Below, piece by piece: positions 3,893 to 26,353 of a DNA stretch of 64,000 nucleotides. The notes below the pieces were generated by a model. The model made no database searches and had not been told where the DNA came from. It was given only the letters and a program-made list of their open reading frames with translations. This stretch comes from Gemmatimonadota bacterium (GTDB taxonomy: Bacteria > Gemmatimonadota > Gemmatimonadetes > Gemmatimonadales > GWC2-71-9), in assembly GCA_036679645.1 (NCBI GenBank), contig JAZDCY010000056.1, forward strand, positions 93,820-157,819, written 5' to 3'. Position 1 is the first letter of the stretch; each line of letters begins with the position of its first letter. Both the position numbers and the translations under genes were made by a program.

Positions 3893-3932
3893 TGGAAACC
3901 CGGCGGCGAAAACCCTATCTTCTTCCGGACCC

Positions 3933-8721: not shown

Positions 8722-8816
8722 CGGCCGCCGATGCCATCATCGAACCCGGATTTGTTGCAGAGAGGGACAAAGCATACAGAGGGGAATGTGACAGAAATCA
8801 CCCGCGGGAAACCTGT

Positions 8817-8842
8817 TGAAACCTCACGATCGGGACACCGTA
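8817..8842 (+). promoter_or_regulatory. Putative ECF (SigW-type) promoter TGAAAC-N16-CGTA
   Basis: tgaaac ctcacgatcgggacac cgta matches the SigW consensus and lies 13 nt before ATG 8856. Confidence 0.65.
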
Positions 8843-8855
8843 ATGGGGGGCAGAT

Positions 8856-9374
8856 ATGAACGACGATACTCGACATCCGACACCGCCCGGCGATACGCCG
8901 GCGCTGGACAGACTGCTGGCCGGCCTGGGGCGGCTGAGCCCCGGACGCGGCTTCGAGCAGAAGGTGCTGGCGCTCGTCCGCATCCCGCTGCCCAAATGGG
9001 CCTGGCGAATCCGTGAGACGTTTCGCGGGCTCACCTCAGGTCCTCGGGGCTGGGTCATTCTGGGAACGCTGTCGCTGGCAACCGCGACGGCGTGGTTCGG
9101 CACTGCGGCTTTTGCCTTCCGGTTTCGCCATGACGCGGAGCCGTACGTAAGCAGAGGCAGTGACATCCTCACAAGAATCGTCGAGCCGGTCTGGGGCGAG
9201 ATGCTCGCCCTTGGTGCGGCTCAGCGTGATGCCTTTGGCAACTCCGTCACGAACGCGTTCGGGGGATTGGGAGTCTCCTGGCCGGTGCTCGCAATCGGCT
9301 ACGGCGTGCTCGTCGTGGTCAGCGCGATCGGCCTCAGGCTCCTCATGAACCGGCACGCCAAGGTGGATGGTTAA
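8856..9374 (+). CDS. Membrane protein, putative anti-sigma factor
   Basis: Directly downstream of the ECF sigma. L..LSPGRGFEQKVL motif and two TM segments. Confidence 0.6.
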   Translation: MNDDTRHPTPPGDTPALDRLLAGLGRLSPGRGFEQKVLALVRIPLPKWAWRIRETFRGLTSGPRGWVILGTLSLATATAWFGTAAFAFRFRHDAEPYVSRGSDILTRIVEPVWGEMLALGAAQRDAFGNSVTNAFGGLGVSWPVLAIGYGVLVVVSAIGLRLLMNRHAKVDG

Positions 9375-10696: not shown

Positions 10697-11547
10697 GACG
10701 CCGCATCACGTTGCTGGCCAGCCTGGCCGTGCTTGCGACGGCTGGCTTGGCAAGCGCGCAGTCCTACCGCACGGTCGTGGAGTCACGACAGATGAGTGGT
10801 GAGCGAGACCTGAGTGTGAGCATCGGGTTCGCGGTTGGGCACATCCTGGTCGCACCCGCGCAGGGCCGCGAGCTTTACCGGCTCTCGATGGTCTACGACG
10901 AGGATTTCTTCCGACCCGATGTCCGGTACCGTGAGTCTCGCAACCGGCTCCGGGCCGAGCTCGAGTCGCTCGGTCGGCACGGTCGCCAGGACGCAGATCT
11001 GGACCAGCAGATCGACCTCGTCATCTCGCCATCGGTAGCGCTGGATCTGCATCTCAAGTTCGGCGCAGCGGAAGCGGATCTCGAGCTGGGCGGTCTGTCG
11101 CTCACGGAGGGACATATCGAGACCGGTGCGAGCGAAACAACCGTTCGCTTCTCCGCACCCAACCGCGCCGTCTGCGAGTCACTGCGATTTGAGGTCGGTG
11201 CCGCAGAGTTTGAAGCGCTGAATCTCGCAAACGCCCGCTGTCGCCTTATCAAGCTCTCCGCAGGCCTGGCTGAGATACTGCTCGACTTCACCGGTGAGTG
11301 GAGTGACGCGATCGAGACCAAGGTGGACATCGAGATGGGGTTGGGTGAGGTCCGACTGCGCTTCCCCGAAGACCTCGGCGTCCGGATCCGGGTCGATCGG
11401 TTTCTCGTCAGCGTCGATCGCAACGGCTTCGACAAGCGCGGCTCGACCTACACGTCGCGCAACTGGGACGACGTGACTACACACATCGAGATCGATATCG
11501 AGGCCGCACTCGGTAGCGTCGAAGTGGAGTGGGTGCCCAACCGGTAG
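10693..11547 (+). CDS. Exported LiaF/toast-rack-like beta protein
   Basis: GTG overlaps the upstream TGA. Signal peptide RRRITLLASLAVLATAGLASA; repeated G-A-(A/S)-E beta motifs; IEAALGSVEV C-terminus. Confidence 0.7.
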   Translation: MRRRITLLASLAVLATAGLASAQSYRTVVESRQMSGERDLSVSIGFAVGHILVAPAQGRELYRLSMVYDEDFFRPDVRYRESRNRLRAELESLGRHGRQDADLDQQIDLVISPSVALDLHLKFGAAEADLELGGLSLTEGHIETGASETTVRFSAPNRAVCESLRFEVGAAEFEALNLANARCRLIKLSAGLAEILLDFTGEWSDAIETKVDIEMGLGEVRLRFPEDLGVRIRVDRFLVSVDRNGFDKRGSTYTSRNWDDVTTHIEIDIEAALGSVEVEWVPNR

Positions 11548-11633: not shown

Positions 11634-12617
11634 ATGTCGGTCACGATTCGACGCGCGGGCCCCGCCGATGCGGCAGCCCTGACGGCGATCGCCCTTGCGG
11701 CGAAATCACACTGGGGATACCCCGACGCCTGGCTCGCAGAGTGGCGACCGCAACTCACGCTCGCTCCCGACTACGTAACCCGTAATCCGGTGTTCGTCCT
11801 CGAAGAGTCACGGGAACCGGTCGGATTCTGCGCCCTCGCGCGTGAACCGGAACATTGGCTACTCGATCACCTGTGGGTGTCTCCCGCCGCGCACGGTCGT
11901 GGGTACGGACGCGCGCTGTTTCGACATGCCGTTTCGTACGCCGCCGCTGAAGCACCTGCGCTCGCGGTCCGCATCGAGTCCGATCCAAACGCCGAAGCGT
12001 TCTACGCCCACATGGGCGCACGGCGCACTAGCACCCACCCAGGGCCAGTGTGCGGACTGCCGCGCGAACTCCCCGTCCTCATCTATGAGACCCAAATGAT
12101 CATTTCACGACCCGCTCCCGACGAGTACGCCCCCTACTACGGCGGCTACATCGACCAGGTACCGGACGGTGACGTCTTGGACCTGTTGCAACACCAGATC
12201 GGGCAGACGACCGACCTCATCTCGGGCGTAGCACCTGAGCGCGGCACATATCGTTATGCGCCGGAGAAATGGTGCCTCAACGACGTCCTCGGGCACCTTT
12301 GCGACACCGAGCGCGTTTTCACCTATCGGGCACTCCGCTTCAGCCGCGGCGATGCACAGGCACTGCCCGGCATGGAGCAAGACGACTACGTGACCGGAGC
12401 GAACTTCGCGGACCGCTCGACGGCGGACCTGCTGGAAGAACTCCAAACGGTTCGTGCCGCGACCATCACACTTTTGCGTTCGCTGACGCCCGAGATGCTC
12501 GCGCGGCGGGGCACGGCAAGCGATTGCCAGTTCACGGCCCGCGCCATTGCCTATGTCATTGCGGGACACGAGCGACATCATGTGCAGGTGCTCCGCGAAC
12601 GCTACCTCGAACGCTGA
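11634..12617 (+). CDS. GNAT acetyltransferase-DinB family fusion
   Basis: N-half SHWGYP..W, LDHLWVSP..HGRGYGRAL, SDPNAEAFY. C-half RPAPDEYAPYY, RYAPEKW...GHLCDTERVF, GHERHH. Confidence 0.8.
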   Translation: MSVTIRRAGPADAAALTAIALAAKSHWGYPDAWLAEWRPQLTLAPDYVTRNPVFVLEESREPVGFCALAREPEHWLLDHLWVSPAAHGRGYGRALFRHAVSYAAAEAPALAVRIESDPNAEAFYAHMGARRTSTHPGPVCGLPRELPVLIYETQMIISRPAPDEYAPYYGGYIDQVPDGDVLDLLQHQIGQTTDLISGVAPERGTYRYAPEKWCLNDVLGHLCDTERVFTYRALRFSRGDAQALPGMEQDDYVTGANFADRSTADLLEELQTVRAATITLLRSLTPEMLARRGTASDCQFTARAIAYVIAGHERHHVQVLRERYLER

Positions 12618-12642
12618 ACGCCGAACCAAGGGAAGCCAACCC

Positions 12643-13824
12643 ATGGCGCAACTCCATCCGGGATCAAAGGATCGGCGTGCTCATGTCCGGCGTTGGGGCT
12701 GGACGCTCGCTGCGGGAGCGTTCGCCTGCGGGCCTTCGCTGGTTCCGACAGTGCCGGCCCCGGTGGTTCTTGCTGGAGCAATCGAGCACTCGGTCTTCTT
12801 CATCGGCGATGCCGGCGCTCCGGCCGTGCCCACCGATCCGGTCCTGATCGCCCTCCGCGCCGCGGCATCCGAGCACCCGGAGCGGAACAGCATCGTATTT
12901 CTCGGAGACAACGTGTACCCCATGGGGATGCCGGTGCGGGACGATCCGTCCCGGCAGGAATCGGAGCGGCGGCTCCAGGCACAGATCGATGCCGTGCCGC
13001 AGGGCGCCCGGGGCATCTTCGTCATGGGGAACCACGACTGGATTCGCGGCCGCGAGGGCGGGTTGGCAGCCGTTCGGCGCCAACTGGCCTACATCGCCGA
13101 TGCCGGCCGACCACTCGTCGTTGCGGCACCGACCGGTGGCTGCCCCGGGCCCGCGGTGATCGACGTCAGCGCGCGACTGCGCCTGGTGATGCTCGGCACC
13201 CAATGGTGGCTCCACGGGAGCGAGCGGCCCTCCGACCCGGCCTCCGCGTGCATCGCCGACTCGGAAGCGGAGGTCACCGACTCGCTCCGCACCGTCGTGC
13301 AAGCAGGTCCCGATCGCATCGTCTTGGTCGCCGGACACCACCCTTTGCGCTCAGGCGGGGTGCACGGCGGCAAGTTCGACTGGAAGGACCACATCTTCCC
13401 GCTGCGAGTCTGGAAGTCGTGGCTCTGGTTACCGCTTCCGATTATCGGGTCGCTGTATCCGCTGGTGCGGGGATCTGGCTTCTCGGCGCAGGACCTGGGC
13501 TCGGGACGCTACCAGACGATGCGGGACTCGATCGTCGCCGCCTTTGGCAGCCATCCGCCGCTTGCGTATGCAGCGGGGCACGAGCACAATCTGCAGGTTC
13601 TGGACGGCATGGGAGCTCGCTATCTCCTCGTATCGGGAGCCGGCATCTACGATCACCTCAGCCAGGCATTCCGACTCGAGGGTTCACTGTACGCGCGGGC
13701 CGCGAGCGGTTTCATCCGCATCGATCTCCTCCGAGATGGACGCGTTCGCCTCGCGGTGCTCTTGGCGGATGGAGACGGCCGGTTGACCGAGGATTTCTCG
13801 ATGTGGCTGGAGGAGAACCGATGA
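12643..13824 (+). CDS. Exported calcineurin-like metallophosphoesterase (probable lipoprotein)
   Basis: IGDAG, LGDNVY, GNHD, GHHP and GHEH motifs. LAAGAFAC lipobox-like N-terminus. Confidence 0.85.
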   Translation: MAQLHPGSKDRRAHVRRWGWTLAAGAFACGPSLVPTVPAPVVLAGAIEHSVFFIGDAGAPAVPTDPVLIALRAAASEHPERNSIVFLGDNVYPMGMPVRDDPSRQESERRLQAQIDAVPQGARGIFVMGNHDWIRGREGGLAAVRRQLAYIADAGRPLVVAAPTGGCPGPAVIDVSARLRLVMLGTQWWLHGSERPSDPASACIADSEAEVTDSLRTVVQAGPDRIVLVAGHHPLRSGGVHGGKFDWKDHIFPLRVWKSWLWLPLPIIGSLYPLVRGSGFSAQDLGSGRYQTMRDSIVAAFGSHPPLAYAAGHEHNLQVLDGMGARYLLVSGAGIYDHLSQAFRLEGSLYARAASGFIRIDLLRDGRVRLAVLLADGDGRLTEDFSMWLEENR

Positions 13825-16373
13825 GACGCAAGGTACCCGGCACGGCGCTCCTGTTGGCAGCCGTCTCAGTCGCGGGTCCCTCATCGACGCATGCACAACA
13901 GCGCGATAGCGTCCGGATCGCGGCCGGCTCCCAATACGATGCAGGTGGGTTCCACCGCCTCCTGTTCGGCGGTGATTATCGCGACCTGTGGCGTACCCCG
14001 ATCTCTGTGCTCATGCTCGACCTGGATACGGCGAGCGGCGGCCTCACACCGACGACCGCAGGTGGAGGATTCCAGACGAAGTCCCTGCGCTTCCGCGACG
14101 CGAACGGGTTCCTCTATGGATTTCGGTCGGTGGACAAGGACCCCGCCGTCCTGCCGGACGAGTTGGCCGGAACCTTCGTCGAGGACCTCGTACGGGACCA
14201 GACAAGCTCGGCCCATCCTGCCGGCTCCGGAATCGTTCCACCGTTATTGGAGGCGGTGGGCATTCTCCACACGGAGCCCCGGCTCGTCGTCCTCCCCGAC
14301 GACCCCAGGCTCGGTGTGTTCCGGGAACGCTTTGCCGGGACGTTGGGCTATTTCGAGCTGCGTGGAATTGTGGAACCCGGCGCGCAACGGTTCGCCAACG
14401 CGCTAGAGATTCTCGACAGCGACGACGTATACCCAATGGTGCGGCAGAGCCCGGCACATCGTATTGACACCCGCCAGTTTCTCACAGCACGGCTCATCGA
14501 TCTCTTGATCGGCGATTGGGATCGTCACCGGGGCCAGTGGGGCTGGGCGCGCTTCGATGACGCAACCGTCACCTATTGGACTCCCATACCCGAGGACCGC
14601 GATCAGGCCTTTGCGCGCTTCGACGGCCTGTTCCTGTCGCTGGGACGGGCAGCGGCCCCGCAGCTCGTGAACTTCGGCGATGACTATCCCAACATGGTGG
14701 GCCTCACGTGGAACGGGCGGGAGAGCGACCGGTGGTTTCTCGTCCAGCTGGAAAAATCCGTGTGGGATTCGGTGGCTGCCGCGGTGCAGGCGCGAATCAC
14801 GGACGCGGTCATCGACGCCGCGGTCGCGGGCATGCCCGTCGAGTATCAGGCAATCGACGGCGACCGCATGCGCCGGGCGTTGCGCGCGCGCCGCGACAAA
14901 CTGCTCGAGGCAACCGACCGGTTCTACCGCGTGATCGTGGGAGAGGTTGACCTCCACGCAACGGAGGCGGCGGAGTTCGTAACGATCGACCGACATGCCG
15001 ACGGCAATGTGACCGTCGAGATCACCGAGCGTCGTCCCGGCGCAACTCCCTGGCTCCGCCGCACGTTCGACGCGAGCGAGACCAGCGAAATACGGCTCTA
15101 TCTCTATGGCGGCAACGATCGCGTCGTCGTGCGCGGGGACGGGCGAGGCATTGGCTTGCGGATCATCGGAGGTGGGAGCGACGAGGTGGTGGATTCCTCG
15201 CGTGCCGGCGGCGTCAGGTTCTATGCGACGGGGGTCGATCGCACGAGTGGGCCCACCGGGGTGCAGGTGGACCGCCGCGTGTACACGCCACCAGCCAAAC
15301 GGTTCGAGAGGGAACTGCCGCCACGCGATTGGGGCCACCGCTGGATGCCGGTGCTCTGGGCCGGTGGCGGGCCCGACATCGGTGCATTCGCGGGATTCGG
15401 CGCGTTTGTAACTCGGTGGGGATTCCGCAAGCTGCCGTACACATATCGGATTCGCGTACGCGGTGGCTACGCCACGGCAGCAAGGGCATTCCGGACCGAC
15501 CTGCTCGCGACGTTCTATCGCATGAATTCCCGGATCCACGGTGACGTGTACGTCCGTGCGTCCGGAATCGAGGTGCTACGCTTCCACGGTCTAGGAAACG
15601 AGACGCAGCTCGACCGCCCGGATGATTTTTACCGTGTCACCCAGGACCAATACACTATCCAGCCGACGGTCACCGTTCCGCTGGGAACCCCCGCGACAAT
15701 CACGTTCGGGCCTCTCGCGACCATCAGCGATACCGAGGCGCAACCGAACCGGATCATCGATTCACTCCAATCACTCCAACCGTTATACGGGGCCGGACAC
15801 TTCAGTCAGGTCGGATGGCAGACTAGCGTGAGGTTCGATACCCGGGACGTCGCGGCCGCGGCTTCGCGGGGGGTAGCCATCGACGTTGGCGGCTCGGTCT
15901 ACCCCGAGCTGCTCGACGTGGTAACGACCTTTGGTGAGGCCCACGCCACGGCATCGACATATCTCTCCGTCGGTGGCCCGGGCGCGCCCGCAGCAACGCT
16001 TGCCCTCCGCGCCGGTGGAAAGAAAGTCTGGGGAACTTTCCCCTTCCACGAGGCCGCTTTCATAGGAGATGACGCGACGGTGCGCCTGGGCCGCCAAAAT
16101 CGTTTCGGCGGTGACGCCGCCGCGTGGGGCAACGCGGAACTCCGGCTGCGGGTGGCAAAGATCTCCTTTCCCTTGCCGGGCCATTTCGGCCTGCTAGGCC
16201 TCGCGGACGCCGGACGCGTGTTCCTCGAGGGCGAATCGTCGGACGACTGGCATACGGCGTTCGGAGGCGGCATCTGGTTTTCCTTCCTCCAACCGTCGAA
16301 TACCATAAGCGCGGCGGTTGCGCACAATAGTGAAGACGTGCGGTTGTATGTACGGGCCGGGTTTGCTTACTGA
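13821..16373 (+). CDS. Omp85/BamA-TamA-type barrel protein with N-terminal atypical kinase-like domain
   Basis: ATGA overlap with the phosphoesterase; signal peptide; GGGFQTKSL, IGDWDRHRGQW, PEDRDQAF; amphipathic beta C-half ending YVRAGFAY. Confidence 0.8.
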   Translation: MRRKVPGTALLLAAVSVAGPSSTHAQQRDSVRIAAGSQYDAGGFHRLLFGGDYRDLWRTPISVLMLDLDTASGGLTPTTAGGGFQTKSLRFRDANGFLYGFRSVDKDPAVLPDELAGTFVEDLVRDQTSSAHPAGSGIVPPLLEAVGILHTEPRLVVLPDDPRLGVFRERFAGTLGYFELRGIVEPGAQRFANALEILDSDDVYPMVRQSPAHRIDTRQFLTARLIDLLIGDWDRHRGQWGWARFDDATVTYWTPIPEDRDQAFARFDGLFLSLGRAAAPQLVNFGDDYPNMVGLTWNGRESDRWFLVQLEKSVWDSVAAAVQARITDAVIDAAVAGMPVEYQAIDGDRMRRALRARRDKLLEATDRFYRVIVGEVDLHATEAAEFVTIDRHADGNVTVEITERRPGATPWLRRTFDASETSEIRLYLYGGNDRVVVRGDGRGIGLRIIGGGSDEVVDSSRAGGVRFYATGVDRTSGPTGVQVDRRVYTPPAKRFERELPPRDWGHRWMPVLWAGGGPDIGAFAGFGAFVTRWGFRKLPYTYRIRVRGGYATAARAFRTDLLATFYRMNSRIHGDVYVRASGIEVLRFHGLGNETQLDRPDDFYRVTQDQYTIQPTVTVPLGTPATITFGPLATISDTEAQPNRIIDSLQSLQPLYGAGHFSQVGWQTSVRFDTRDVAAAASRGVAIDVGGSVYPELLDVVTTFGEAHATASTYLSVGGPGAPAATLALRAGGKKVWGTFPFHEAAFIGDDATVRLGRQNRFGGDAAAWGNAELRLRVAKISFPLPGHFGLLGLADAGRVFLEGESSDDWHTAFGGGIWFSFLQPSNTISAAVAHNSEDVRLYVRAGFAY

Positions 16374-16445
16374 CACCCCGCCATCGCTGCTAGGAGGCCC
16401 GATGACGAGCCACATGGATTCGATCGAGACGCTGGGACCTAGGCC

Positions 16446-18078
16446 GTGGAGGTAGTGAGCGACCGGGTCCGACCACTCACCACGACATCCACCAGCCAGC
16501 GCAGTTCCAGCGCGTGGACGTGGAGTCTGGCGTCGCTGCCACCGGATCTTCTCGAGCAATCGTGCAAGCGGATTGCCATCGTCGCGATGGTCTTTGCGGG
16601 GCTCTGGATGCTCCCTCTGGTTCTCAACCCGGTTGCGCTCCGATTCGCACCCGATGACCCGTTCGTGGCAGGCGCCGCGTGGCCCATGCCCGGCAGGTTA
16701 ATCGCGGGACTCGGGCTCCTGCTGTCGCTGGGAATGGTCTTCGTGGCGGCCAAGCTGCACCCCGCACCCTCCGTGCTGTTGAACACTGGGCTCGGATTCG
16801 AGGTCGCAACGGCCCTGCTGATCGGGATTCTCAATCAGTGGCAGCCCGTCCTCGTTCCCGGCCGTGCCTCCTGGATATGCATCATCATTCTGATCTATCC
16901 CGCGATCGTACCCAATACACCCACCAAGACGTTCATCGCCGCGTTTGCTGCCGCGTCGATGGACCCGCTCGGGTTCGGGATTGCCATGGCGCGCGGCGCC
17001 GTCCCCGCGGGTGAATTCACCGCCTTCACCGCCCTGTGGTATTTCCTCCCGGCGTACCTGTGTGCGGCCCTTGCAGTAGTTCCGGTACACATCATCCGGA
17101 AGCTCGGGCGACAGGTCAGCAAGGCCCGGGAGCTGGGCAGCTACCGCCTCGGCGAATCGATTGGGACAGGCGGGATGGGAGACGTCTACCGGGCGGAACA
17201 TCGGCTGCTGGCACGACCAGCCGCGATCAAGCTGATTCGCCCCGCGCTCCTTTCCACAAGCCGCCGGGAGGCGACGGTGATCCTCGAGCGATTCCGCCGC
17301 GAGGCCGAGGCGGCGGCGCTGTTGCGCTCCCCGCATACCATCGAACTCTACGATTTCGGCGTGGCCGAGGAAGGGACGTTCTACCTGGTAATGGAGCTAC
17401 TCGATGGACTCAGTTTCGAGGTGCTAGTCGAGCGATTCGGCCCGGTTCCGCCAGAACGCGCGGTGTATCTCATGCTCCAGGCCTGTGCCTCCCTGGCCGA
17501 AGCACATTCCACTGGTCTGATGCATCGTGACATCAAGCCATCCAATATCTTTACCAACCGTCTCGGGCTCGAGGTCGATTTCGTCAAAGTGCTCGATTTT
17601 GGCCTGGTCAAGGCAGACCCCGGAAACGGGGTCGAGCAATCGGACCGGCACGCCGGCGTTCATGGCGCCGGAGGTCGCGCTCGGCGAGGAGACCGCCGAC
17701 CACCGCCTCGACGTATACTCGCTTGGGGCGGTACTCTATTGGATGCTCACCGGTCAGCTTATCTTCGAGGCATCCAATCCGATCAAGATGATGCACCGAC
17801 ACATTAGAGACCAGCCGACGCCACCGTCGCAACGTACGGAACTCGACATACCACCCGAGCTCGACGACCTCGTCATGGCGTGTCTCGCGAAAGACCCTGA
17901 AGCGCGACCCGCGAACGCCGCGGCACTCGCCCATGCACTCGCCGAGATCGAGTTCCAAGAGCCGTGGACCACTGAGCGGGCGGAGCGTTGGTGGGATATG
18001 CACGTTCCAGACTGCATGACCGCCGGCGGCCCGTGCGACCAGGGAACGCTGGTACCTGCGTTGTCAGTCGCCGGGTAG
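16446..18078 (+). pseudogene. Membrane Ser/Thr kinase, frameshifted in the activation segment (~17643)
   Basis: N-terminal TM helices, GTGGMGDVY, HRDIKPSN and DFGLVK in one frame. TGTPAFMAPE..DVYSLG continues in another frame to 18078. Confidence 0.85.
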
Positions 18079-18089
18079 TCTCCACGCAC

Positions 18090-19514
18090 ATGCGCCGCGC
18101 CCTCCGAACCACCGTCGGCCTTACGGCGCTCCTTCTCGCGGGTCGTATTCCGATCATCGCGGCACAAGAGGCCGACACGGCCCGGCTTCGGAACATTCTC
18201 GATCTCAGTACGTCCCTGGAGACGCTCTCCACTCGGATAGCCCCGGCCGTCGTGCAGATCTTCACGACCGCCCTGGGACCCGTCGCGCCGGGATCCGGCG
18301 CCCAGCGAGTGGGTCTCCAACGGCGAGGTGGTTCCGGTTTCGTCCTGACATCGGACGGGTATATCCTGACGAACGCCCATGTGGTAGCGGGAGCACGCTC
18401 AGTACAGGTCCTGCTCGCACAGGCTGCCGCGCCCGATGCGCCCGGTCGGTCCGTCATACGGCCGGGGGGAAAGCGAGTGACCGGTACGGTTGTGGGGGCC
18501 GATTCAGAAACGGACTTGGCGCTCATCAAGATAGATGAGACCAATCTGCCGTTTCTCCAGTTTGGCGATTCGGACGAACTGGGCCCCGGGAACCTCGTAC
18601 TCGCCTTCGGAAGCCCCCTTGGTTTGGAGACCTCGATCAGTCTAGGCATCGTGAGCGCCGTGGGGCGGCAGCTGCGGCCGGAAAGCCCTATGGTCTATAT
18701 CCAGACAGATGCACCAATCAATCCTGGAAACAGCGGCGGTCCCCTCGTGGACACACGGGGACGTGTCATTGGCATCAACACGCTGATCCTCTCGCAGTCG
18801 GGCGGCAGCGAAGGCGTGGGCTTCGCGGTACCAAGCAACATCGCACGGAGCGTCTACGGGCAGCTCCGCAGTGCCGGGCATGTACGCCGCGGTATCGTCG
18901 GAGCCAACGTGCAGACGATCGACGTGGTCATGGCGGACGCACTTCGCCTTACGCAGGATTGGGGCGCGATCGTGACCGATGTGTTTCCGCGTTCCCCCGC
19001 CCAACAGGCGGGGCTGCAGGTGGGTGACATCATCGTCTCCCTCGATGGAAAGCCCATGGAGAACGGGCGCCAGTTCGACGTCAACGTCTATCAACGCGCC
19101 GCGGGCGACATCATCCGTCTCGACGTGCGGCGCAACCTCCAGCGGCTCTCCCTGCAGGTGCGCGTGGTTGAGCGCGACCGCGACCCGAATCGCTTCGCGG
19201 ATATGGCTCGCTCCGAAGAAAATCTGGTGCGTCGGCTCGGCATACTGGCCCTCGACGTGACGCCGGCCATTGCACGGCAGATGCCCTGGCTGCGCATGCA
19301 GACCGGCGTCGTCGTGGCCGCGCTTGCCGCCGACGTTCCGCGCATCGAGACCGGTCTCCGGGCAGGTGATGTGATTCATGCCGCGAACGGCGCCGCGGTC
19401 ACGTCGCTCGCGATGCTGGCGGCGTTCCTCAACCAGTTGGACGTGGGCGATGCGGTGGTGCTGCACGTCGGCCGGTTCGGACGTCTTCGGTTCGTTGCAT
19501 TCCGCATCGAGTAG
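18090..19514 (+). CDS. HtrA/DegP-family serine protease with two PDZ domains
   Basis: GSGF, LTNAHVV, DLALIK, IQTDAPINPGNSGGPL, two PDZ-like regions and a signal peptide. Confidence 0.93.
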   Translation: MRRALRTTVGLTALLLAGRIPIIAAQEADTARLRNILDLSTSLETLSTRIAPAVVQIFTTALGPVAPGSGAQRVGLQRRGGSGFVLTSDGYILTNAHVVAGARSVQVLLAQAAAPDAPGRSVIRPGGKRVTGTVVGADSETDLALIKIDETNLPFLQFGDSDELGPGNLVLAFGSPLGLETSISLGIVSAVGRQLRPESPMVYIQTDAPINPGNSGGPLVDTRGRVIGINTLILSQSGGSEGVGFAVPSNIARSVYGQLRSAGHVRRGIVGANVQTIDVVMADALRLTQDWGAIVTDVFPRSPAQQAGLQVGDIIVSLDGKPMENGRQFDVNVYQRAAGDIIRLDVRRNLQRLSLQVRVVERDRDPNRFADMARSEENLVRRLGILALDVTPAIARQMPWLRMQTGVVVAALAADVPRIETGLRAGDVIHAANGAAVTSLAMLAAFLNQLDVGDAVVLHVGRFGRLRFVAFRIE

Positions 19515-20910
19515 ACGCGCCCTGCGGTGCGCGTTCTCGACACTCCTGCTGTGTACGACATCAGGCGCGGCAACAGCCCAAACTCACGACGGTTCCGGCA
19601 ACAGCTATTGGGGAACCATACCACCACCGCACGATTCGGTAAGCGCGGTATTCGCCAGCGGGCCACGCCCCGTCTGGGAAACCGTCTTGCTCGTCCCATA
19701 CTGGATCATGGGACTCCCGCTACGACTCCTCGCGGTCGGCGTCGGGGAAGGTGTCGAGTCCCTCGACGAGTCGGGCATTGCCAGTACGGTGGGTGGCTGG
19801 CTGGGTCCACGCACCGGACCGTTCGGGGTCGTCGTCAGCGCGCGGGCCGGCGGATTGAGTGGCGTCGGAGGCGGAGTGGCCGTTGAGCACACGGAGCTGT
19901 TCAATCGACCGGGTACCGCATTTCGCGGGCGGGTAGCCGGTACGTTCATCGGTGACTTTCGCGCGAGCGGCGCGGTGCGAGTCCCCTTCTCGGAACGCAG
20001 CCTGCTCGACGTGGGCACTGGGTATCGATTTCGCAACAGGGTTCGCTACTTCGGTATCGGGCCCGAGCGCGGCGCTGAGGACGAATCGATATTCCGCCAA
20101 CGTACATGGTGGCTGGGAGGCGAGGTCACCGGCGGCTGGGGAGATCAGATCACCGCGACCGCCAGCCTCGTGTTTACGAGTGTCAAGCCACTCGACGCGC
20201 GTGAACAGGACCAGAACAGCGACGACCCGCCTATCACCGTACGCTACGCAGACTCCCTGCCACCTGGCTTTGGCGAGACCTCTAACGGCATGGCTCTGGG
20301 GGCGGAGATCATGCACCAGGACGCGACGGATACTGGTAGGCCGATGAGTGGCGGTATCCGTCGTGCCATAGTCGGCTACTTTCGTGGGACCGGCGGCGAG
20401 ACGACCGAGTTCTGGAACGTACGGGGAGAGCTGCAGCAGTTCGTGCCGCTGTGGTATCGACATCACGTACTCGCCCTTCGGCTGGCGACCTCGTGGATGC
20501 AGCAGATTGGCGACGCGCCCATTCCGTTCACTCGCCTCATCTCGAACGACGATCCGGACCTCCTGCGCGGCTTCGACGACTTTCGCTGGCGCGACCGTGG
20601 GCTCGCGGTGCTGTCAGCGGAGTACCGCTGGCCGTTGTGGGCGTATGAGCGTGCGCAAGGTGCGGGCCTCGACTTCTACCTGCTCACAGATGTGGGACAG
20701 GTCTTCAGCGACTTCGACGACATCCGCGGAGAGAACCTGACATTCTCGTATGGCGCCGGCCTGCGACTCGTCACTGCAGCGGGCTTCGCGCTGCGCATCG
20801 AGTATGCGCTCAGCAACGAGGACGTGGCGTTCCGCCTGCGTGGCGATCAGATCTTCCAGACCTTCCGAGGGGCGCTCTACCATGGACGCGAACCGAACCC
20901 CGCGCGCTAG
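19495..20910 (+). CDS. Omp85/BamA-TamA-type outer membrane barrel protein
   Basis: RYFGIG, LRGF loop-6 motif (DLLRGFDDFRWRD), SAEYRWPL, DVGQVF, SYGAGLR. Start uncertain (TTG 19495). Confidence 0.8.
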   Translation: MHSASSRRALRCAFSTLLLCTTSGAATAQTHDGSGNSYWGTIPPPHDSVSAVFASGPRPVWETVLLVPYWIMGLPLRLLAVGVGEGVESLDESGIASTVGGWLGPRTGPFGVVVSARAGGLSGVGGGVAVEHTELFNRPGTAFRGRVAGTFIGDFRASGAVRVPFSERSLLDVGTGYRFRNRVRYFGIGPERGAEDESIFRQRTWWLGGEVTGGWGDQITATASLVFTSVKPLDAREQDQNSDDPPITVRYADSLPPGFGETSNGMALGAEIMHQDATDTGRPMSGGIRRAIVGYFRGTGGETTEFWNVRGELQQFVPLWYRHHVLALRLATSWMQQIGDAPIPFTRLISNDDPDLLRGFDDFRWRDRGLAVLSAEYRWPLWAYERAQGAGLDFYLLTDVGQVFSDFDDIRGENLTFSYGAGLRLVTAAGFALRIEYALSNEDVAFRLRGDQIFQTFRGALYHGREPNPAR

Positions 20911-22564
20911 GCTCGTCTCGCTGGCTGCGGGCGCGCTCCTGGTTTCCGCTTCGGGAGCGCTGCTCACGCCGTTGCGCGACGCTCCCGTCGCGTGGTACGC
21001 GGATGATATGCGCAACATAGCGGAACCCGCGGAACGCGAGCCGCACATCGTCCGCGCGGCGATCGACGCCACGCTATTCAGGCCGTTCGGTCGCTTCTTC
21101 CATCCCGGGCGGCTTGTCCGTCGGGTCGGTACTGCATTTGGAGGAGATCATGTTCCGGCCGCGGCGAACCTCAATGCGCTGGACGAGGTCCCGAATTCGA
21201 GTTGGTTCACGAATCGCCTCGGGCTCTTCCCGAGCGCTCCCGCCGTCGCCGCGCGGGGCCCAGCGGTGGGTGAAGGTCCATCAGCCCCGTGGACGGTGAT
21301 TCGCCCGAAGACGCAAGGTGTGACACCAGGGTTCGATATTCGGGACGCCAACGGACAGGTCTGGGTCATCAAGTTCGACGTTGCAGGATTCCCCTCGATG
21401 TCCACAGCCGCAGGGGTCATCGCGGGGCGGATCTTCCATGCGGCGGGGTACAACGTGCCTGACGATCGGGTCGTAACGTTCACGCGCGACCAGCTCCAGG
21501 TCTCGCCCGATGCCGAGATGCGCGAGGGTGACGACCGCCGTCAAATGACCCATGCCGATCTGGACGAGCTACTGGCGCGCGTGGAGCGCAATCCGGACGG
21601 GAGCTGGCGCGCTCTCGCGAGCAGGTTCCTTTCCGGTACGCCGGTTGGGCGCTTCGACTGGCGAGGACGGAGGCGAGACGATCCCAACGATCGGGTCAAC
21701 CATGAGAACCGACGTGAGATTCGCGGTCTAGCGGTCTTCGCCGCGTGGCTCTGCCACTACGACACCAAGCAGGGGAACACGCTCGACATGTACGTCGAGG
21801 AAGATGGGCGTCGCTTCGTCCGTCACTACCTCATCGACTTTGCCTCCACCCTTGGGGCGGGCGGGACCGGTCCCTTCCCCGCCGCCTGCTACGAGTACTC
21901 ATTCGATTTCGGTGCTTCGTTCCTCCGTGTCCTGTCACTGGGCGTCTACCAGGACCCCTGGCGGCGGCTCGAGCGTCCCGAGGGGCTCGATGAGATTGGA
22001 TACTACGAGAGCGAGGTCTTCTCCCCTCGCGGGTTCAAGCCACTCGAGCCGAACGCCGCCTTCGCCAATCTGACGGATCGGGATGGCTATTGGGCAGCGA
22101 AAATCATATCAGCGTTCACGGACGCGCACCTGGAAGCGATGGTTGCGGGGGGACGCTACCGCACGCCGGAGGCGGCGCGTTGGATGCGGCGCGTGCTGGC
22201 AGAGCGGCGCGACGAGATCGTGCGGTACTGGTTCAGCCGGGTACCACCGCTGGATTTCTTCACGTACCATGACGGGACAGTGCGATTTCACGATCTCGGG
22301 ACGAGAAGCGGGATCTTTTCGGGGTCCGAGACGCGTTACCGTCTGAGGGTGGCCTACGCGACGCCGACGCGCGACCTTGGTCCCACGACCGACTGGCTCG
22401 AACTCGAGCGGACGGAGACGGCGCTCTCGCAGATCGCAATCCCGGGCACCCCGGAGCCGTTCATAGCGATCGAGACCCAGCTCACACGGGGGGCGCGCTG
22501 GAGCCATTCGGTGACCGTGTTCATCGCGGCCGCGAGCGGGCGCGTTGTTGCGCTCGAACGATAG
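20882..22564 (+). CDS. Exported protein with HipA/protein-kinase-like motifs
   Basis: Hydrophobic N-terminus; KTQGVTPG..RDANGQVWVIKFD; HYDTKQGN (DxKxxN); YLIDFAS (DFG-like). Confidence 0.7.
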   Translation: MDANRTPRARLVSLAAGALLVSASGALLTPLRDAPVAWYADDMRNIAEPAEREPHIVRAAIDATLFRPFGRFFHPGRLVRRVGTAFGGDHVPAAANLNALDEVPNSSWFTNRLGLFPSAPAVAARGPAVGEGPSAPWTVIRPKTQGVTPGFDIRDANGQVWVIKFDVAGFPSMSTAAGVIAGRIFHAAGYNVPDDRVVTFTRDQLQVSPDAEMREGDDRRQMTHADLDELLARVERNPDGSWRALASRFLSGTPVGRFDWRGRRRDDPNDRVNHENRREIRGLAVFAAWLCHYDTKQGNTLDMYVEEDGRRFVRHYLIDFASTLGAGGTGPFPAACYEYSFDFGASFLRVLSLGVYQDPWRRLERPEGLDEIGYYESEVFSPRGFKPLEPNAAFANLTDRDGYWAAKIISAFTDAHLEAMVAGGRYRTPEAARWMRRVLAERRDEIVRYWFSRVPPLDFFTYHDGTVRFHDLGTRSGIFSGSETRYRLRVAYATPTRDLGPTTDWLELERTETALSQIAIPGTPEPFIAIETQLTRGARWSHSVTVFIAAASGRVVALER

Positions 22565-22574
22565 GGAGAATCAG

Positions 22575-24071
22575 ATGGCTACGAACGCTTCGCGGGATGG
22601 CCAAGCAAGCGCCGTAGATCGTTTTCTGCGCCTGTTCACAGAGGTGCGGGGCGGCGAGAGCACGACGGCGCTGCTGCTCGCGCTCAATGTTTTCTTGTTC
22701 CTGATGGCCTACTCTGTCATAAAAGTGCTCCGAGAACCCCTCATCCTGGCCGGTGGGGGAGACACGCTGAGCGGCGCCCAGCTCAAGGCGTACACGGCCG
22801 CCGGCTCGGTGTTGCTGTTGGCGGTCATCGTCCCCCTGTACGGGGAACTCGCCGGCCGCGTTCCCCGGCGCCGTTTGATCAATATCGTAAGTGCGATATT
22901 CGTGCTGGCGCTCGGCGGATTCTTCCTGCTGGCCCAAACCGGTCTTAGCGTCGGGATTCCCTTCTTCATCTTCGTCGCGATCTTCAGCGTGATGATCATC
23001 GCCCAGTTCTGGGCGTTCGCGAACGACGTCTATACGGAAGAGGAAGGAAAACGCCTCTTCCCCATCGTGGGCTTTGGTATGTCGGCTGGAGCGATCGCCG
23101 GGGTGTCGGTTACAATAGCGCTCGAACCGCTGGGGCTCAACGTGCTCTTTCTCCTCTCGGCCGGGGTGCTCGTCCTGGCTACCGCGATGACCAACCTGAT
23201 CGACCACCGCGAGCGACGCCGCACCGAAGCAACCGTACCGGATGCCATGACGAGTGGATTCCTGCCGGCGGCGACGGGGCAGTTCCGTGCGGCGACGGGA
23301 GAACTCAAGGCCACCGCCGAGAGTGAGGAGTACCAACGTGAGACCGGCACCTTCCGGACGGTCAAGCCCGGACAATCCATCGAGGAGACCGAGAAGGAAC
23401 AGATCGAAAGCACCGCGGGCGCCTTCGCCCTGGTCTTCCGCAACCGGTACCTGCTCCTCATAGCACTCCTGGTCATGCTACTGAACTGGGTCAACACGAA
23501 CGGGGGGTTCTTCCTGGATGACTTCATCACGCGGAGCGCGGAAGCGACCGTGGCCGACAATCCCCAAAGCGACCTCAGCACGGGTGAAATCATAGGTTCG
23601 TTCTACGCACGATTCTATTTGGTCGTGAACATCGCCACGCTCTTGATCCAGGGCTTTGCGGTATCGCGCATCATCAAGTACTTCGGTGCACGAGGAGCGA
23701 TCCTCTTTCTGCCGATCATCGCGCTTGGCGCGTACACGCTCGTGGCCTTCATCCCAGTGCTGGCCGTCGCACGGTGGGCCAAGACCGCGGAGAACAGTAT
23801 CGATTACTCACTCAACAACACGGTGCGCAACGTGCTGTTCCTGCCGACGACGCGGGAGGAGAAGTACAAGGGCAAGCAGGTCACGGACGCCTTCTCCCAG
23901 CGCGCCGGCGATGTCCTGAGCTCCGCGACGGTGTTCGTGCTGACGGGCCTGCTGGGCTTTGGAGGAATCGCCCTCGTGTACCTCAACATCCCGCTGGTGA
24001 TCATCTGGCTGATCATCGCGGTGGCACTCGGGCGCCGGTACGGACGCCTCGCGGCCGCAACGGGGACCTAG
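22575..24071 (+). CDS. NTT/TLC (Npt1/Npt2) family nucleotide (ATP/ADP) translocase homologue
   Basis: AYSVIKVLRE, QFWAFANDVY..EEGKRLFP, KTAENSIDYSLNNT, EEKYKGK; many TM segments; GGGAG RBS. Confidence 0.88.
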   Translation: MATNASRDGQASAVDRFLRLFTEVRGGESTTALLLALNVFLFLMAYSVIKVLREPLILAGGGDTLSGAQLKAYTAAGSVLLLAVIVPLYGELAGRVPRRRLINIVSAIFVLALGGFFLLAQTGLSVGIPFFIFVAIFSVMIIAQFWAFANDVYTEEEGKRLFPIVGFGMSAGAIAGVSVTIALEPLGLNVLFLLSAGVLVLATAMTNLIDHRERRRTEATVPDAMTSGFLPAATGQFRAATGELKATAESEEYQRETGTFRTVKPGQSIEETEKEQIESTAGAFALVFRNRYLLLIALLVMLLNWVNTNGGFFLDDFITRSAEATVADNPQSDLSTGEIIGSFYARFYLVVNIATLLIQGFAVSRIIKYFGARGAILFLPIIALGAYTLVAFIPVLAVARWAKTAENSIDYSLNNTVRNVLFLPTTREEKYKGKQVTDAFSQRAGDVLSSATVFVLTGLLGFGGIALVYLNIPLVIIWLIIAVALGRRYGRLAAATGT

Positions 24072-26353
24072 TCGGCCTCGGACCGCCGTTTCTTGCGGAG
24101 TGCCTCGAGGTCTATCACGATCGAGGCGTTCGACTGCAGCAGGTCATTCAACACCGTATCGGCCGAACGGCGTTCGGTGGTCTGCTTCCGCGTATCCTCG
24201 AGAAACGGCCACAGGGCCTTGCGAATTTCATCCGGCAGCGCACTCTCCAGGTATTCGAGCGCGGTGCCGCGGAGGTGCGCGTCTTCCGTATGCAGGCCCC
24301 GGAACGCGATCTTGAGCGGCTGACGGGGCAAGACGAGCGCAAGCATCGTAAACACGTGCTCGAGGCTGCGATTCGCTCGCTGTCGCAGCATCTCATCCAT
24401 GACCGGAGACCAGGACTCGTCTTCCATCTGATCCAGGATGCGATGGCTCTTCCACACCCCCTGATCGACGGCAACCTCACTGAGCACCGCCTCCTCCACC
24501 CGTTGCCGGCTGATGACCAGCTTGGGATTCCGATCCAGGAGGCGTGACAGAGCGCGGCCACAGCGGTACCTCACCTCGAAGCGCGAGTCGCGCAGCGCGC
24601 TCAGAAGCCCATCCACGGCGCGCCGATTGGGGCATGACGCGAGGACGAGCGGAAGCCGCCGCCGCACGGCGAAGTCCTCATCGGGATCGAGCAGCCGATC
24701 GCACAATTGCCCGGTCGCGCGTGGTGCGACGTCGCGCAGGGTCGCAATAACGTCCTGAGCCACAGCGTCCCACGCGAGTAGCGGCACCGCATATGCGACG
24801 AGTGAGAGCGGGAACGGGCGGGTCGCGAGCACTCTGCGAACCGCGGTCGCGTCGCGAGACCGCAACTCGCCGATCTGCGCGAATTCCGGCGTGAGGGTGA
24901 CCGCCGACGGCGAGGACCGCGCCGGCACCGCCGGCCGCTGCGCAGATGCGCGGACCTCTTTCAATGCCGGTCCGCTCGTATCGAATAGCGTCATACCCAA
25001 CGCCCCGGCCGTCTGCAGCAATGCCGTGCGGGTAGCCGCCTCGCGCGCCTCAGCGAGATCCAACTGCCCTGCGCGCGATAGAAGACTCCGTTCCAGGGCC
25101 TTCACGTAACCGCGCTGCAGACGAATGGCGAGCATGGCACCAACGAGTGACACGGCGATCGTGAGTCCCAACAGGACTCCGGTCACCGCGCCGACCGCGA
25201 CCGCGACGATGGTAACCTGAACGATCGCGCCCCCGATCACATCTCCGAGCCGAACCGCGCCGACGTCTACCAATACCTTGGTCGCGCGTTTCTGGCGCGG
25301 GGCGAGCGGAGCGAACAGCATCTCGTAGCCGGCTCGGTATAGCCCGTTCCGCATCACAGACTCGGCGCCCCGGACACCGATGATCATGCCGAGCCGGGGC
25401 GCGACGAGCGCAGCCGCTCCACCGAGCGCTATGGTTGAGGGAAGGAGAGCAACCGTACGCCCGAGTCCCAACCGCTCCAGCGACAGGCGACTTCCGACCG
25501 CCTGCACGATCACCGTGAGAAGGGCGACGCCGGTATAGAACACCGCAAAGAAACGCAGCAGGGATTCCCCACTGCCGAACGACGCGGTCGCGCGCGCCTT
25601 GAACACGTAGTCGATGAGTCCTTCGCCAATCGTCGTGACGAGTACGAGTGCGACCAGACCACGCAGGTATCCTGTTCGAGCCAGGAGCTTGACGCCGGCG
25701 AACGTGCTCTTCTCGGTGCGGGCTCCTGCGCGTACCGCGACACCGCCGCCGCGACGCACTCCTAGGACCGTTACCGCACACAGGACGTGCAGTGCGGCGA
25801 GGATTGGAAGCATGGCGGTTATCGAAAGGAGCGCAGCGGATCGTTCGGCGAGAATTCCCCCAAGCAGCCCACCAACGGTACCACCCGCCGCTATCCGTCC
25901 GATCTGACGTTTCGCCGTACGCGGGTCGAAGCGCTCGCTCACGATCGACCAGAAACCGGAGATCAGGACCGCACCGAGACCGGAGAAGTGGAAGTACACG
26001 GCAACCGCGACCGGCCGGCGGAAGGTATCCACGAACATCCACTCCGTGAGGAGCAGCGCACCGCTCACCAGGAACGCCAGCGGGACCACCCGTGCCGGGC
26101 CGAGCGTCATCAGGACGCGCGTCGTGCCAAACGCGAGCAACACCGACACCACCGCCGCGGCCATGACCATCGCCGGCAACGCCGAGATATCGAAGCTCGA
26201 CAGGAACAGCGCGTCACGAGTCGCCTTGGCTGCCATCTGGAAGGCGATCATGACGGTGGCCGTCAGCGTCGCAGCAAAAACCGCGGAACGGAGATCCCGA
26301 TCAGCGGTGATGGTCAGGCTCCGATGGGGCAGGTGTGAGGGTGACAGGCACAC
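24068..26353 (-). CDS. NTT-family transporter fused to HEAT repeats
   Basis: KATRDALFLSSF, ISGFWSIVSERFDPRTAKR, LIDYVFK, KVLVDV. C-terminal HEAT-like repeats (DEDFAVRRR, DSRFEVRYR, EDAHLRGTALEYL). Start uncertain. Confidence 0.85.
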   Translation of the reverse strand: MCLSPSHLPHRSLTITADRDLRSAVFAATLTATVMIAFQMAAKATRDALFLSSFDISALPAMVMAAAVVSVLLAFGTTRVLMTLGPARVVPLAFLVSGALLLTEWMFVDTFRRPVAVAVYFHFSGLGAVLISGFWSIVSERFDPRTAKRQIGRIAAGGTVGGLLGGILAERSAALLSITAMLPILAALHVLCAVTVLGVRRGGGVAVRAGARTEKSTFAGVKLLARTGYLRGLVALVLVTTIGEGLIDYVFKARATASFGSGESLLRFFAVFYTGVALLTVIVQAVGSRLSLERLGLGRTVALLPSTIALGGAAALVAPRLGMIIGVRGAESVMRNGLYRAGYEMLFAPLAPRQKRATKVLVDVGAVRLGDVIGGAIVQVTIVAVAVGAVTGVLLGLTIAVSLVGAMLAIRLQRGYVKALERSLLSRAGQLDLAEAREAATRTALLQTAGALGMTLFDTSGPALKEVRASAQRPAVPARSSPSAVTLTPEFAQIGELRSRDATAVRRVLATRPFPLSLVAYAVPLLAWDAVAQDVIATLRDVAPRATGQLCDRLLDPDEDFAVRRRLPLVLASCPNRRAVDGLLSALRDSRFEVRYRCGRALSRLLDRNPKLVISRQRVEEAVLSEVAVDQGVWKSHRILDQMEDESWSPVMDEMLRQRANRSLEHVFTMLALVLPRQPLKIAFRGLHTEDAHLRGTALEYLESALPDEIRKALWPFLEDTRKQTTERRSADTVLNDLLQSNASIVIDLEALRKKRRSEAD

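Follow-up and report, generated by a model that had tools for sequence, protein, structure and literature searches.

A Gemmatimonadota gene pair encoding a predicted kinase domain on an Omp85 barrel and an overlapping putative phosphatase-type lipoprotein

A stretch of 64,000 nucleotides from a Gemmatimonadota bacterium (contig JAZDCY010000056.1), called the window below, was analysed. The ORF at 13821..16373 (+) encodes a protein of 850 amino acids without an internal stop codon. Its start codon overlaps, as ATGA, with the stop codon of an upstream phosphoesterase gene (12643..13824, +), as a first-pass annotation of this DNA had claimed. In the AlphaFold2 model of the 850-aa protein (mean pLDDT 90.9), an alpha/beta domain (residues 27-373) leads into a short, parallel beta-roll (residues 375-485), and the barrel has 16 strands (506-847). 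The polypeptide ends in FAY, so that the aromatic last residue noticed earlier is present. The signal peptide noticed earlier is predicted from the sequence to be of the Sec type (13821..13895, +; cleavage before Gln26); Q26 is found in 115 of the 118 homologues, and the N-termini of the 25 homologues compared are alike in this region. The alignment of homologues (A1) kept 118 of 120 sequences after P0019 and P0071 were removed for length, and a second alignment (A2) lost one of 120 (P0199) likewise. A promoter and terminator scan gave no signal above chance.

Is the division into two genes real? An independent contig (run X1, depth 108), which is possibly the source of the present DNA, has zero differing letters over the ORF and the junction. 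Thus, an assembly error does not account for the split into two genes. A frameshift artefact behind the split was rejected in view of this identical contig, the signal peptide of the second gene and the many relatives that are also split. A longer ORF of 1226 aa (12693-16373), which extends in frame upstream across the phosphatase gene, was without support.

The same-strand run continues downstream with a membrane Hanks-type Ser/Thr kinase gene (16446..18078, +; PF00069 in two frames), a gene for a DegP/HtrA-family periplasmic protease (18090..19514, +; Trypsin_2 and two PDZ domains; TIGR02037 at E 8.7e-106, under the cut-off) and one for a second Omp85 barrel that lacks a large N-terminal domain, its start codon being uncertain (19522..20910, +; PF01103, E 1.1e-12). 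Then comes kin2 (20882..22564, +), encoding a second kinase-like protein, predicted to be exported, with a C-terminal FN3-like domain (model pLDDT 84.4). The last gene of the run, TLC1 (22572..24071, +), encodes an inner-membrane carrier of the NTT/TLC family (PF03219, 45.8 bits against a cut-off of 21; Atlas 0.99; TIGR00769 far under its cut-off) that matches plant and bacterial NTT structures (9j3j, 9j3n). Within the window, TLC1 directly follows kin2 and not the kinase-barrel gene. Convergent with it lies TLC2 (24068..26353, -), a carrier with PF03219 and HEAT_2 domains.

The first-pass annotation had read the N-terminal domain of the 850-aa protein (13899..14939, +) as an atypical kinase of the PI3/4K-, HipA- and Fam20-like group, and this reading was borne out. 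Full-length structure searches (Foldseek and VIA; top 1000) were dominated by barrels, and a wide search resolved the kinase domain. Residues 61-372 match CotH (Z 14.7, rmsd 4.0, 248 residues aligned), PI4KIIa (Z 14.3), CtkA (Z 13.0, rmsd 4.3, 221 aligned) and HipA (Z 11.5), and a bilobed fold is seen in the model comparison. The identity is 10-15% in the structural alignments with the CtkA, PI4KIIa, HipA and Fam20 group. Among viral models, the top Foldseek match is a PI3/4-kinase-domain protein (E 2.5e-6). The domain is thus predicted to have a kinase fold of the CotH/CtkA type with conserved catalytic residues. Protein-kinase and lipid-kinase structures tie as its fold matches, and CotH, PI4KIIa, CtkA and HipA act on proteins or lipids. 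At the profile level, no Pfam match to CotH, HipA_C, PI3_PI4_kinase or Fam20C was obtained for the kinase-barrel protein at E up to 0.1, and Pfam and NCBIfam assigned no kinase family to it or to kin2. In the PDB profile search it found CtkA alone, as a weak match at the catalytic loop (E 0.058). Its Atlas neighbours score 0.78-0.79 and are no more than leads.

The motifs GGGFQT (81-86), RDANGFLYGFR (92-102), IGDWDRHRGQW (230-240) and PEDRDQAF (257-264) contain the Gly loop (81-86), R102 and, just beyond the second motif, K106, a catalytic loop D234-R-H-x-x-Q239 and a metal-binding D259-R-D261, whose catalytic and metal-binding roles are presumed from the motif positions. Conservation was counted in 298 distinct kinase domains with 34-74% identity to the query, domains of <280 profile columns being left out. 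R102 is kept in 292 of them, K106 in 289 and D126 in 290; in the catalytic loop, D234 in 291, R235 in 290, H236 in 270 and Q/N239 in 290 (Gln in 269, Asn in 21); in the metal-binding loop, D259 in 291, R260 in 288 and D261 in 292. The full R-K-D-DRH-[Q/N]-DRD set occurs in 256 of the 298 domains, so the motifs singled out earlier are conserved. The domain shares the bilobed fold and the D-R-H catalytic loop with CtkA, PI4KIIa, HipA and Fam20, whereas it has Gln for the usual Asn, a D-R-D metal loop and no match to their family models. Judging from this conservation, it would very probably be an active phosphotransferase.

Between the kinase domain and the barrel lies the beta-roll (14943..15275, +), a spacer recognised from the model secondary structure and from conservation, with invariant G431 and D433. 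It occupies the place where POTRA domains would be. No POTRA match was found in the kinase-barrel protein by Pfam at E up to 0.1, and the model has the beta-roll instead. The first-pass annotation had overlooked the beta-roll and had not noted that POTRA is missing. The C-terminal part (15336..16373, +) forms a 16-stranded barrel with a C-terminal aromatic residue. Although PF01103 (E 5.6e-5) is just under its cut-off and NF047779 (E 3.8e-17) far under, the barrel matches TamA and BamA in structure (TamA: Z 24.1, rmsd 3.6, 309 aligned), which agrees with the Omp85 assignment made earlier.

Does this barrel carry the kinase to the cell surface? The type Vd-like frame proposed earlier implies a passenger, and a barrel that passes the kinase outside, in this or a two-partner-like manner, would let it act on external targets with external ATP. 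An enzyme is indeed fused to an Omp85 barrel, and the adjoining beta-roll has a G-x-D motif that recalls secreted beta-helical proteins. The two-partner barrels FhaC and CdiB match at Z 19-21, and CtkA, one of the fold matches, is a host-directed kinase. However, TamA and BamA are closer to the barrel than FhaC and CdiB, and the lid-lock motifs, as defined in the available part of PMC11358297, are kept: V-R755-L-G in loop 6 and L-x-D796-x-G in strand 13, with R755 in 118, D796 in 117 and G798 in 117 of the 118 homologues. Fused forms have LRG[F/Y] in loop 6, where the present protein has the variant VRLG. PlpD, the type Vd prototype, has an enzyme domain on an Omp85 barrel, as here, likely periplasmic under the outer membrane; it has a patatin domain and POTRA, whereas the present protein has a kinase domain and the beta-roll. 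Neither patatin (Pfam, structure search) nor a POTRA between enzyme and barrel (Pfam, model) was found in the kinase-barrel protein. The parts of PMC11116518 available state that PlpD's own enzyme domain stays periplasmic and argue against a route for folded domains through a barrel that is closed. In fused forms, some 850 residues that include two enzymes would need to cross the barrel, and surface display leaves the linked inner-membrane carriers, described below, unexplained. I regard it as very unlikely, and the passenger frame as weak. The absence of POTRA, the kept lid-lock, the PlpD precedent, the closed-barrel argument and the lipoprotein nature of the partner together favour the opposite orientation; the kinase domain likely lies beneath the outer membrane, on its periplasmic side.

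The partner is a metallophosphoesterase of the purple-acid-phosphatase type, predicted to be a lipoprotein (Cys29), with PF00149 above the cut-off. In the PDB, it comes closest to purple acid phosphatases/TRAP (E about 1e-9). C29, D56, D89, Y92, N130, H232, H313 and H315 are invariant in 18/18 phosphatase sequences, and I take the latter seven to be the purple acid phosphatase metal ligands D, D, Y, N, H, H and H. It is 28-34% identical to the N-termini of all six fused proteins tested, and the kinase-barrel protein itself shares 27-31% identity over 820-855 columns with six proteins of the same phylum in which phosphoesterase, kinase and barrel are fused. The phosphatase is fused to the kinase-barrel in L187, L189, L193 and most of the 40 loci of the Bacteroidota phylum, where it is fused or within 8 kb in 32; in Gemmatimonadota the phosphoesterase gene is present in 28 of 60 loci. 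Thus, the pairing of the kinase with an opposing phosphoesterase, proposed earlier from the ATGA overlap, is borne out by fusion in Bacteroidota, and the phosphatase lipoprotein likely works with the overlapping kinase gene.

The upstream phosphatase is the separately encoded N-terminal half of fused Metallo-Omp85 proteins, and the kinase-barrel is probably a split form of this 'Metallo' Omp85 subfamily. The architecture itself is not new. In the part of Heinz & Lithgow 2014 available (PMC4104836), Table S3 gives a CtkA-like domain (c3akjB, 99.6-99.8) before the 'Metallo' barrel and places phosphatase-less, kinase-first members, termed 'truncated', in the same cluster; architecture alone is therefore no discovery. 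The domain is labelled a metalloprotease there, the word kinase has 0 occurrences in the text available, and no remark on gene neighbours of Metallo members was found in it. The present locus shares with the subfamily an Omp85 barrel without POTRA, a CtkA-like domain before the barrel and a PF00149 domain in the module. It differs in that PF00149 is absent from the kinase-barrel polypeptide and sits on the overlapping upstream gene as a separate lipoprotein, while the kinase-barrel has a signal peptide of its own. Thus, the 'truncated' form exists as a genuine and widespread gene, and the subfamily may be re-read as phosphatase plus kinase, not metalloprotease. A main-text literature search covering few subscription journals found no paper on this kinase-barrel/phosphatase system.

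Is the kinase common, and what lies beside it? The domain is present in 101/301 genomes of this phylum and in 82/201 sampled genomes of a second phylum, with strongly conserved catalytic residues, despite the view of the periplasm as ATP-free, taken in passing in the available part of PMC11116518. Neighbours were examined at 178 loci in three sets (60 Gemmatimonadota, 79, and 40 of the Bacteroidota phylum; the duplicate locus L155 was dropped). Within 8 kb of the kinase, DUF4956 was found in 49, PycTM in 39 and NTT in 10, any of the three in 98 and none in 80. No locus has two of them, whereas shuffling inside each of the three sets predicts 8.2; the shuffles ignore kinship and so overstate the contrast. 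Profile comparison found no kinship among the three families (probability <1%). In the 101 kinase genomes, DUF4956 lies within 10 kb in 47, NTT in 19 and both in none, and neither is adjacent in 35. This alternation of three unrelated inner-membrane proteins beside the kinase was not found in print. A close NTT orthologue occurs in 37/301 genomes, and 37/37 carry this kinase or kin2 against a baseline of 112/301 (hypergeometric p 1.6e-18, which ignores kinship and overstates). The NTT-linked kinases form one clade (1 change), and there are 5 changes among the three neighbour states. DUF4956 is found in 129/301 genomes, often without the kinase (in one family, f2, 41/69 against 13/69 for the kinase); in the source genome it is on a different contig from this window. 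In the available part of 10.1101/768473, Gram-positive CotH directly adjoins a polyphosphate polymerase and DUF4956. CotH (structure 5jda), the best fold match, and relatives of the present kinase have in common a DUF4956 neighbour and an enzyme that makes polyphosphate. The kinase-barrel protein, in contrast, has no Pfam CotH match and is fused to an outer-membrane barrel; its relatives have PPK1 instead of the polymerase, and NTTs take the place of DUF4956 in this window.

Of the 40 loci of the Bacteroidota phylum, 25 have PycTM (Pfam 'Pycsar effector protein') within 8 kb and 18 an adenylate/guanylate cyclase domain. These cyclases and pore-type membrane effectors would suit an envelope signalling or defence sensor, with the kinase fold as a binding site for a nucleotide or a ligand and phosphotransfer as a secondary function, and one clade has retained full-length barrel fusions despite degenerate motifs. 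Yet the large majority keep the catalytic residues, the loci look stable and syntenic, and most Gemmatimonadota have DUF4956 or NTT in place of PycTM. A sensor thus seems highly improbable. The eight degenerate kinases without partners form one clade (0/8 with any partner against 41/52 intact loci); loss of partners in such kinases was not significant in an independent-pairs test (5 pairs, p 1).

Other recurrent neighbours are related to phosphate. PPK1 is near the kinase in 10/60, 19/79 and 3/40 loci, and an SdiA-regulated propeller in 22/60, 25/79 and 11/40. Together with the purple acid type of the phosphatase, they speak for phosphorus harvesting, in which barrel, phosphatase, propeller and kinase process periplasmic organophosphate or polyphosphate and the carrier imports the product; the kinase would here have a small molecule as its substrate or work in reverse, capturing phosphate on a nucleotide. 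I consider harvesting unlikely. The substrates of the close fold matches are all proteins or lipids, scavenging by a phosphatase requires no anchored kinase, the lid-lock of the barrel is kept, and the Pfam scan found no PPK1 or propeller near the kinase-barrel gene in this window. The direction of transport is in its favour, since characterised NTTs import nucleotides according to the available part of PMC5381601.

The second kinase-like gene and the carriers of the window were also compared. Kin2 matches CtkA (Z 14.0; profile match E 1.5e-4) and Fam20C (Z 13.7), whereas its profile match to the first kinase is weak and confined to the C-lobe (probability 27%). Kin2 is a separate family, and a recent duplication of the two genes was rejected. 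TLC1 and TLC2 both belong to the TLC family, TLC2 being of the NTT-HEAT fusion type of free-living bacteria. A gene for such a fusion stands in line with that of the kinase in L038, L043, L084, L132, L137, L142 and L148. Unlike canonical ATP/ADP NTTs, TLC1 has no equivalents of AtNTT1 E245 and K527: in a low-identity pairwise alignment (offset 84, fitting all three residues in chain 9j3j), K72 corresponds to K155, Ala stands at E245 and D447 (19/19) at K527. K527E abolishes ATP binding in AtNTT1, as given in the available part of PMC3306366.

The preferred reading is a periplasm-facing outer-membrane kinase that phosphorylates an envelope component, the overlapping phosphatase lipoprotein reversing the reaction. 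The signal peptide and barrel suggest that the protein would be exported by Sec and inserted into the outer membrane. There, the barrel would probably be a closed anchor with the beta-roll holding the kinase beneath the membrane, and such an anchor favours an acceptor at the inner leaflet. The purple-acid-phosphatase-type partner, tied to the kinase by fusion and synteny, may take the phosphate off. Taken together, export, anchoring, phosphorylation and its reversal have in my estimate slightly better than an even chance. A further step, in which the neighbouring carrier would take the donor (ATP, another nucleotide or polyphosphate) across the inner membrane, is tentative and somewhat doubtful; gene context would assign it to the NTT pair in this lineage and to DUF4956 or PycTM elsewhere. 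Against the carrier step stand the few independent events and the lack of the ATP-binding lysine in TLC1. If it is true, phosphorylation occurs in a compartment thought to lack ATP. Rather unlikely in its full breadth is a widespread periplasmic phosphorylation by anchored kinase and phosphatase with the free-living NTT clade, DUF4956 and HD-PycTM as interchangeable donor exporters. It may nonetheless offer a single testable explanation for three orphan families of membrane proteins, namely free-living NTTs, DUF4956 and PycTM outside Pycsar.

The contig of run X1 also bears on the Hanks-type kinase gene, in which it has 23 more bases after 17642. The apparent frameshift in this gene is likely an assembly error, 23 bases being missing at that position.

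The protein encoded at 13821-16373 has 850 residues and ends in Tyr; the start codon of its gene overlaps the stop codon of the upstream phosphatase gene (12643-13824) as ATGA. The motifs from which the first-pass annotation had proposed an atypical kinase on an Omp85 barrel were all found, at residues 81-86, 92-102, 230-240, and 257-264. A homologue search (7992 candidates scored, 2824 matches) provided an alignment of 118 sequences for structure prediction; those homologues that carry a taxon name indicate Gemmatimonadota. The predicted structure (mean pLDDT 90.9) lacks a POTRA domain: residues 27-373 form a kinase-like domain, 375-485 a short parallel beta-roll, and 506-847 a barrel of 16 strands. 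When it was compared with 48,161 PDB representatives, the N-terminal domain matched CotH (Z 14.7, rmsd 4.0, 248 aligned) and PI4KIIa (Z 14.3), which tie, as well as CtkA (Z 13.0) and HipA (Z 11.5), while a PI3/4-kinase-domain protein ranked first in a separate search of viral models. The barrel matched TamA at Z 24.1. Both parts of the proposal agree with the model. Each putative catalytic residue, including those of the catalytic loop and the metal-binding position, is conserved in 270-292 of 298 distinct kinase domains, and the full set in 256. In passing, pseudokinases that keep the full-length kinase-barrel layout but have degenerate catalytic motifs form a clade (L048, L049, L075-L079, and L089), often with two per genome and none of the usual neighbours. 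Paired kinase-barrel paralogues within one locus (L064, L069, L139, L140, L164, L166, L176, L179, and L182) often flank DUF4956 and SdiA-regulated genes.

Is the separation from the phosphatase genuine? A contig from a separate assembly, possibly of the same source sample, is letter-identical across the kinase-barrel ORF and the junction. Since the kinase-barrel protein also has its own predicted signal peptide, and the lipobox Cys and seven purple-acid-phosphatase ligands are invariant in the upstream enzyme, the two-gene split is real. In Bacteroidota, by contrast, the phosphoesterase lies on the same polypeptide, in fused phosphoesterase-kinase-roll-barrel proteins of 1200-1300 amino acids (L187, L189, L193, and many of L194-L233). 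The two genes of the window align to the respective two parts of these proteins, which bears out the annotated pairing of the two enzymes. Other arrangements were seen: at L141:9800-13800 three separate genes encode the kinase-roll, the phosphatase, and the barrel, and at L087:10181-13492 one ORF joins phosphatase and kinase, but no barrel was detected.

The architecture of the kinase-barrel protein is already known. Heinz and Lithgow (2014; PMC4104836) defined as the 'Metallo' subfamily those Omp85 proteins that bear a PF00149 domain, in their terms a metalloprotease. A column of their Table S3 gives a CtkA-like domain between the PF00149 domain and the barrel (c3akjB, 99.6-99.8); in the CtkA-like rows the POTRA entry reads 'no potra match' or gives a match that was rejected, and at least four rows, among 25 of the 62 3akj occurrences, are marked 'N-terminal; truncated protein'. 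One member in Table S2 has the CotH family PF08757, and the word 'kinase' does not occur in the main text. The window's protein, with the same CtkA-like domain ahead of a barrel lacking POTRA, is a split variant of this described but uncharacterised subfamily. No published discussion of the kinase, of its lipoprotein phosphatase partner, or of the alternating carriers described below was found in the literature searched.

The annotated likeness to PlpD, the type Vd prototype, holds for an enzyme on an Omp85 barrel but not further, as PlpD has POTRA and patatin and this protein has neither. The enzyme domain of PlpD was located in the periplasm by Hanson et al. (2024; PMC11116518), who argued that a folded domain cannot cross a finished barrel. 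Together with the lack of POTRA and patatin, the retained lid-lock (loop-6 Arg and strand-13 Asp; motifs as in PMC11358297), and the closer match of the barrel to TamA/BamA than to FhaC/CdiB, this suggests that the kinase probably faces the periplasm. The beta-roll makes display of the kinase on the cell surface possible, but the same evidence renders it improbable.

The kinase domain is present in 101/301 genomes of the window's phylum and in 82/201 genomes of the phylum of a Flavobacteriales genome; further loci occur in Ignavibacteria, Chlorobi, Acidobacteriota, Latescibacterota, Poribacteria, KSB1, and one gammaproteobacterium. I analysed 60 own-phylum loci (chosen on contig size and spread before their neighbours were seen), 79 homologous loci, and 40 loci picked from 100 places in the phylum of the Flavobacteriales genome, giving 178 after removal of one duplicate. 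Three mutually unrelated inner-membrane carriers, DUF4956 (about 4 hydrophobic segments), PycTM (about 3, in the C-terminal part only), and the NTT/TLC clade (about 8-11), lie within 8 kb of the kinase gene in 49, 39, and 10 loci, respectively. Two carriers never occur together (0 observed vs 8.2 expected from shuffles), and 80 loci, some on short contigs, have none. With the 23 weakest DUF4956 places outside the count, DUF4956 is within 10 kb in at least 47 of the 101 kinase genomes and both it and a close NTT orthologue in none, among the matches listed; the orthologue itself is within 10 kb in 19, of which 16 lack the second kinase family at E 1e-20. A close NTT orthologue (E under 1e-50) is present in 37 genomes, every one of which also has a gene of either kinase-like family (baseline 112/301), adjacent to it in 26. 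Among the matches listed, the 15 kinase genomes of genus g4 (18 sampled) divide into 7 with NTT and 8 with DUF4956, and the 6 kinase genomes of g11 are its 6 DUF4956 genomes; in g7 the kinase and the NTT occur in the same 7 genomes. A Granulosicoccus locus (L186) retains NTT beside the kinase. DUF4956 is likewise contiguous with cotH and a polyphosphate polymerase in Gram-positives (10.1101/768473), and NTT fusions in free-living bacteria are of unknown function (PMC5381601).

On a FastTree tree of 179 kinase domains, NTT linkage corresponds to one change and the three carrier states to five in all; thus, few events underlie the carrier pattern. The eight loci whose kinase motifs are degenerate have no partner gene at all, and they form one clade, an independent-pairs test being not significant. 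DUF4956 and distant TLC relatives (the latter in 153/301 genomes) often occur without the kinase. In this genome, DUF4956 (G000 C6:85085-86068) and a more distant TLC paralogue (G000 C25:759-2054) lie on contigs other than the window's; in the 20 kb and 10 kb examined there, no kinase-like gene was detected.

From the predicted fold, residue conservation, fusion, and synteny, I somewhat favour a mechanism in which a kinase anchored in the outer membrane on the periplasmic side would phosphorylate an envelope component and the partner phosphatase would remove the phosphate. Export of the phosphoryl donor by the neighbouring carrier would be the boldest step, and a tentative one even if the rest holds. 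Other recurring neighbours are SdiA-regulated propellers, PPK1, and phosphoesterases, with cyclase domains in Bacteroidota; phosphorus harvesting is an unlikely account of the locus, and a signalling or defence sensor a very unlikely one. Beside the fused protein in Bacteroidota (L194-L233) lie HD-PycTM genes or genes with PycTM alone, together with cyclase-TPR genes, all of them in no obvious Pycsar operon.

The kinase-barrel gene sits near the start of a same-strand run (12643-24071) of phosphatase, kinase-barrel, Hanks kinase, HtrA, second Omp85 barrel, second kinase-like protein (20882-22564), and the NTT/TLC carrier TLC1 (22572-24071), which abuts the preceding gene. A convergent NTT-HEAT gene (24068-26353) meets its 3' end. 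At the position of K527 in plant NTT1, where substitution by Glu abolishes the binding of ATP (PMC3306366), my mapping places Asp in TLC1; judged by this residue, TLC1 is not a standard ATP/ADP exchanger, and many conserved basic residues are retained. Export is predicted for the second kinase-like protein, whose modelled structure matches CtkA (Z 14.0) and Fam20C (Z 13.7). Its family, with a CtkA/Fam20 fold plus an FN3-like domain and no Pfam match, was found in 25/301 genomes, with further copies here at G000 C66:66442-68049 and G000 C17:5113-6285; in L091-L096 it lies beside an Omp85 barrel, HtrA, and the NTT pair. The Hanks kinase (16446-18078) has an apparent frameshift, which is likely an assembly error, since the separate contig carries 23 extra bases after 17642, the sole difference across 12600-24100.

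Upstream, an ECF sigma factor, a likely anti-sigma membrane protein, and genes with a LiaF-like C-terminal domain occupy 8116-11547, where overlapping frames (9367-11547 and 10199-10696) suggest a further frameshift or assembly error. One ORF just before the phosphatase gene (11634-12617) combines GNAT acetyltransferase and DinB-like domains. More long ORFs with Hanks-kinase N-termini, including two in tandem with near-identical starts, lie at 3690-6539 (checked with Pfam) and 31923-37312.
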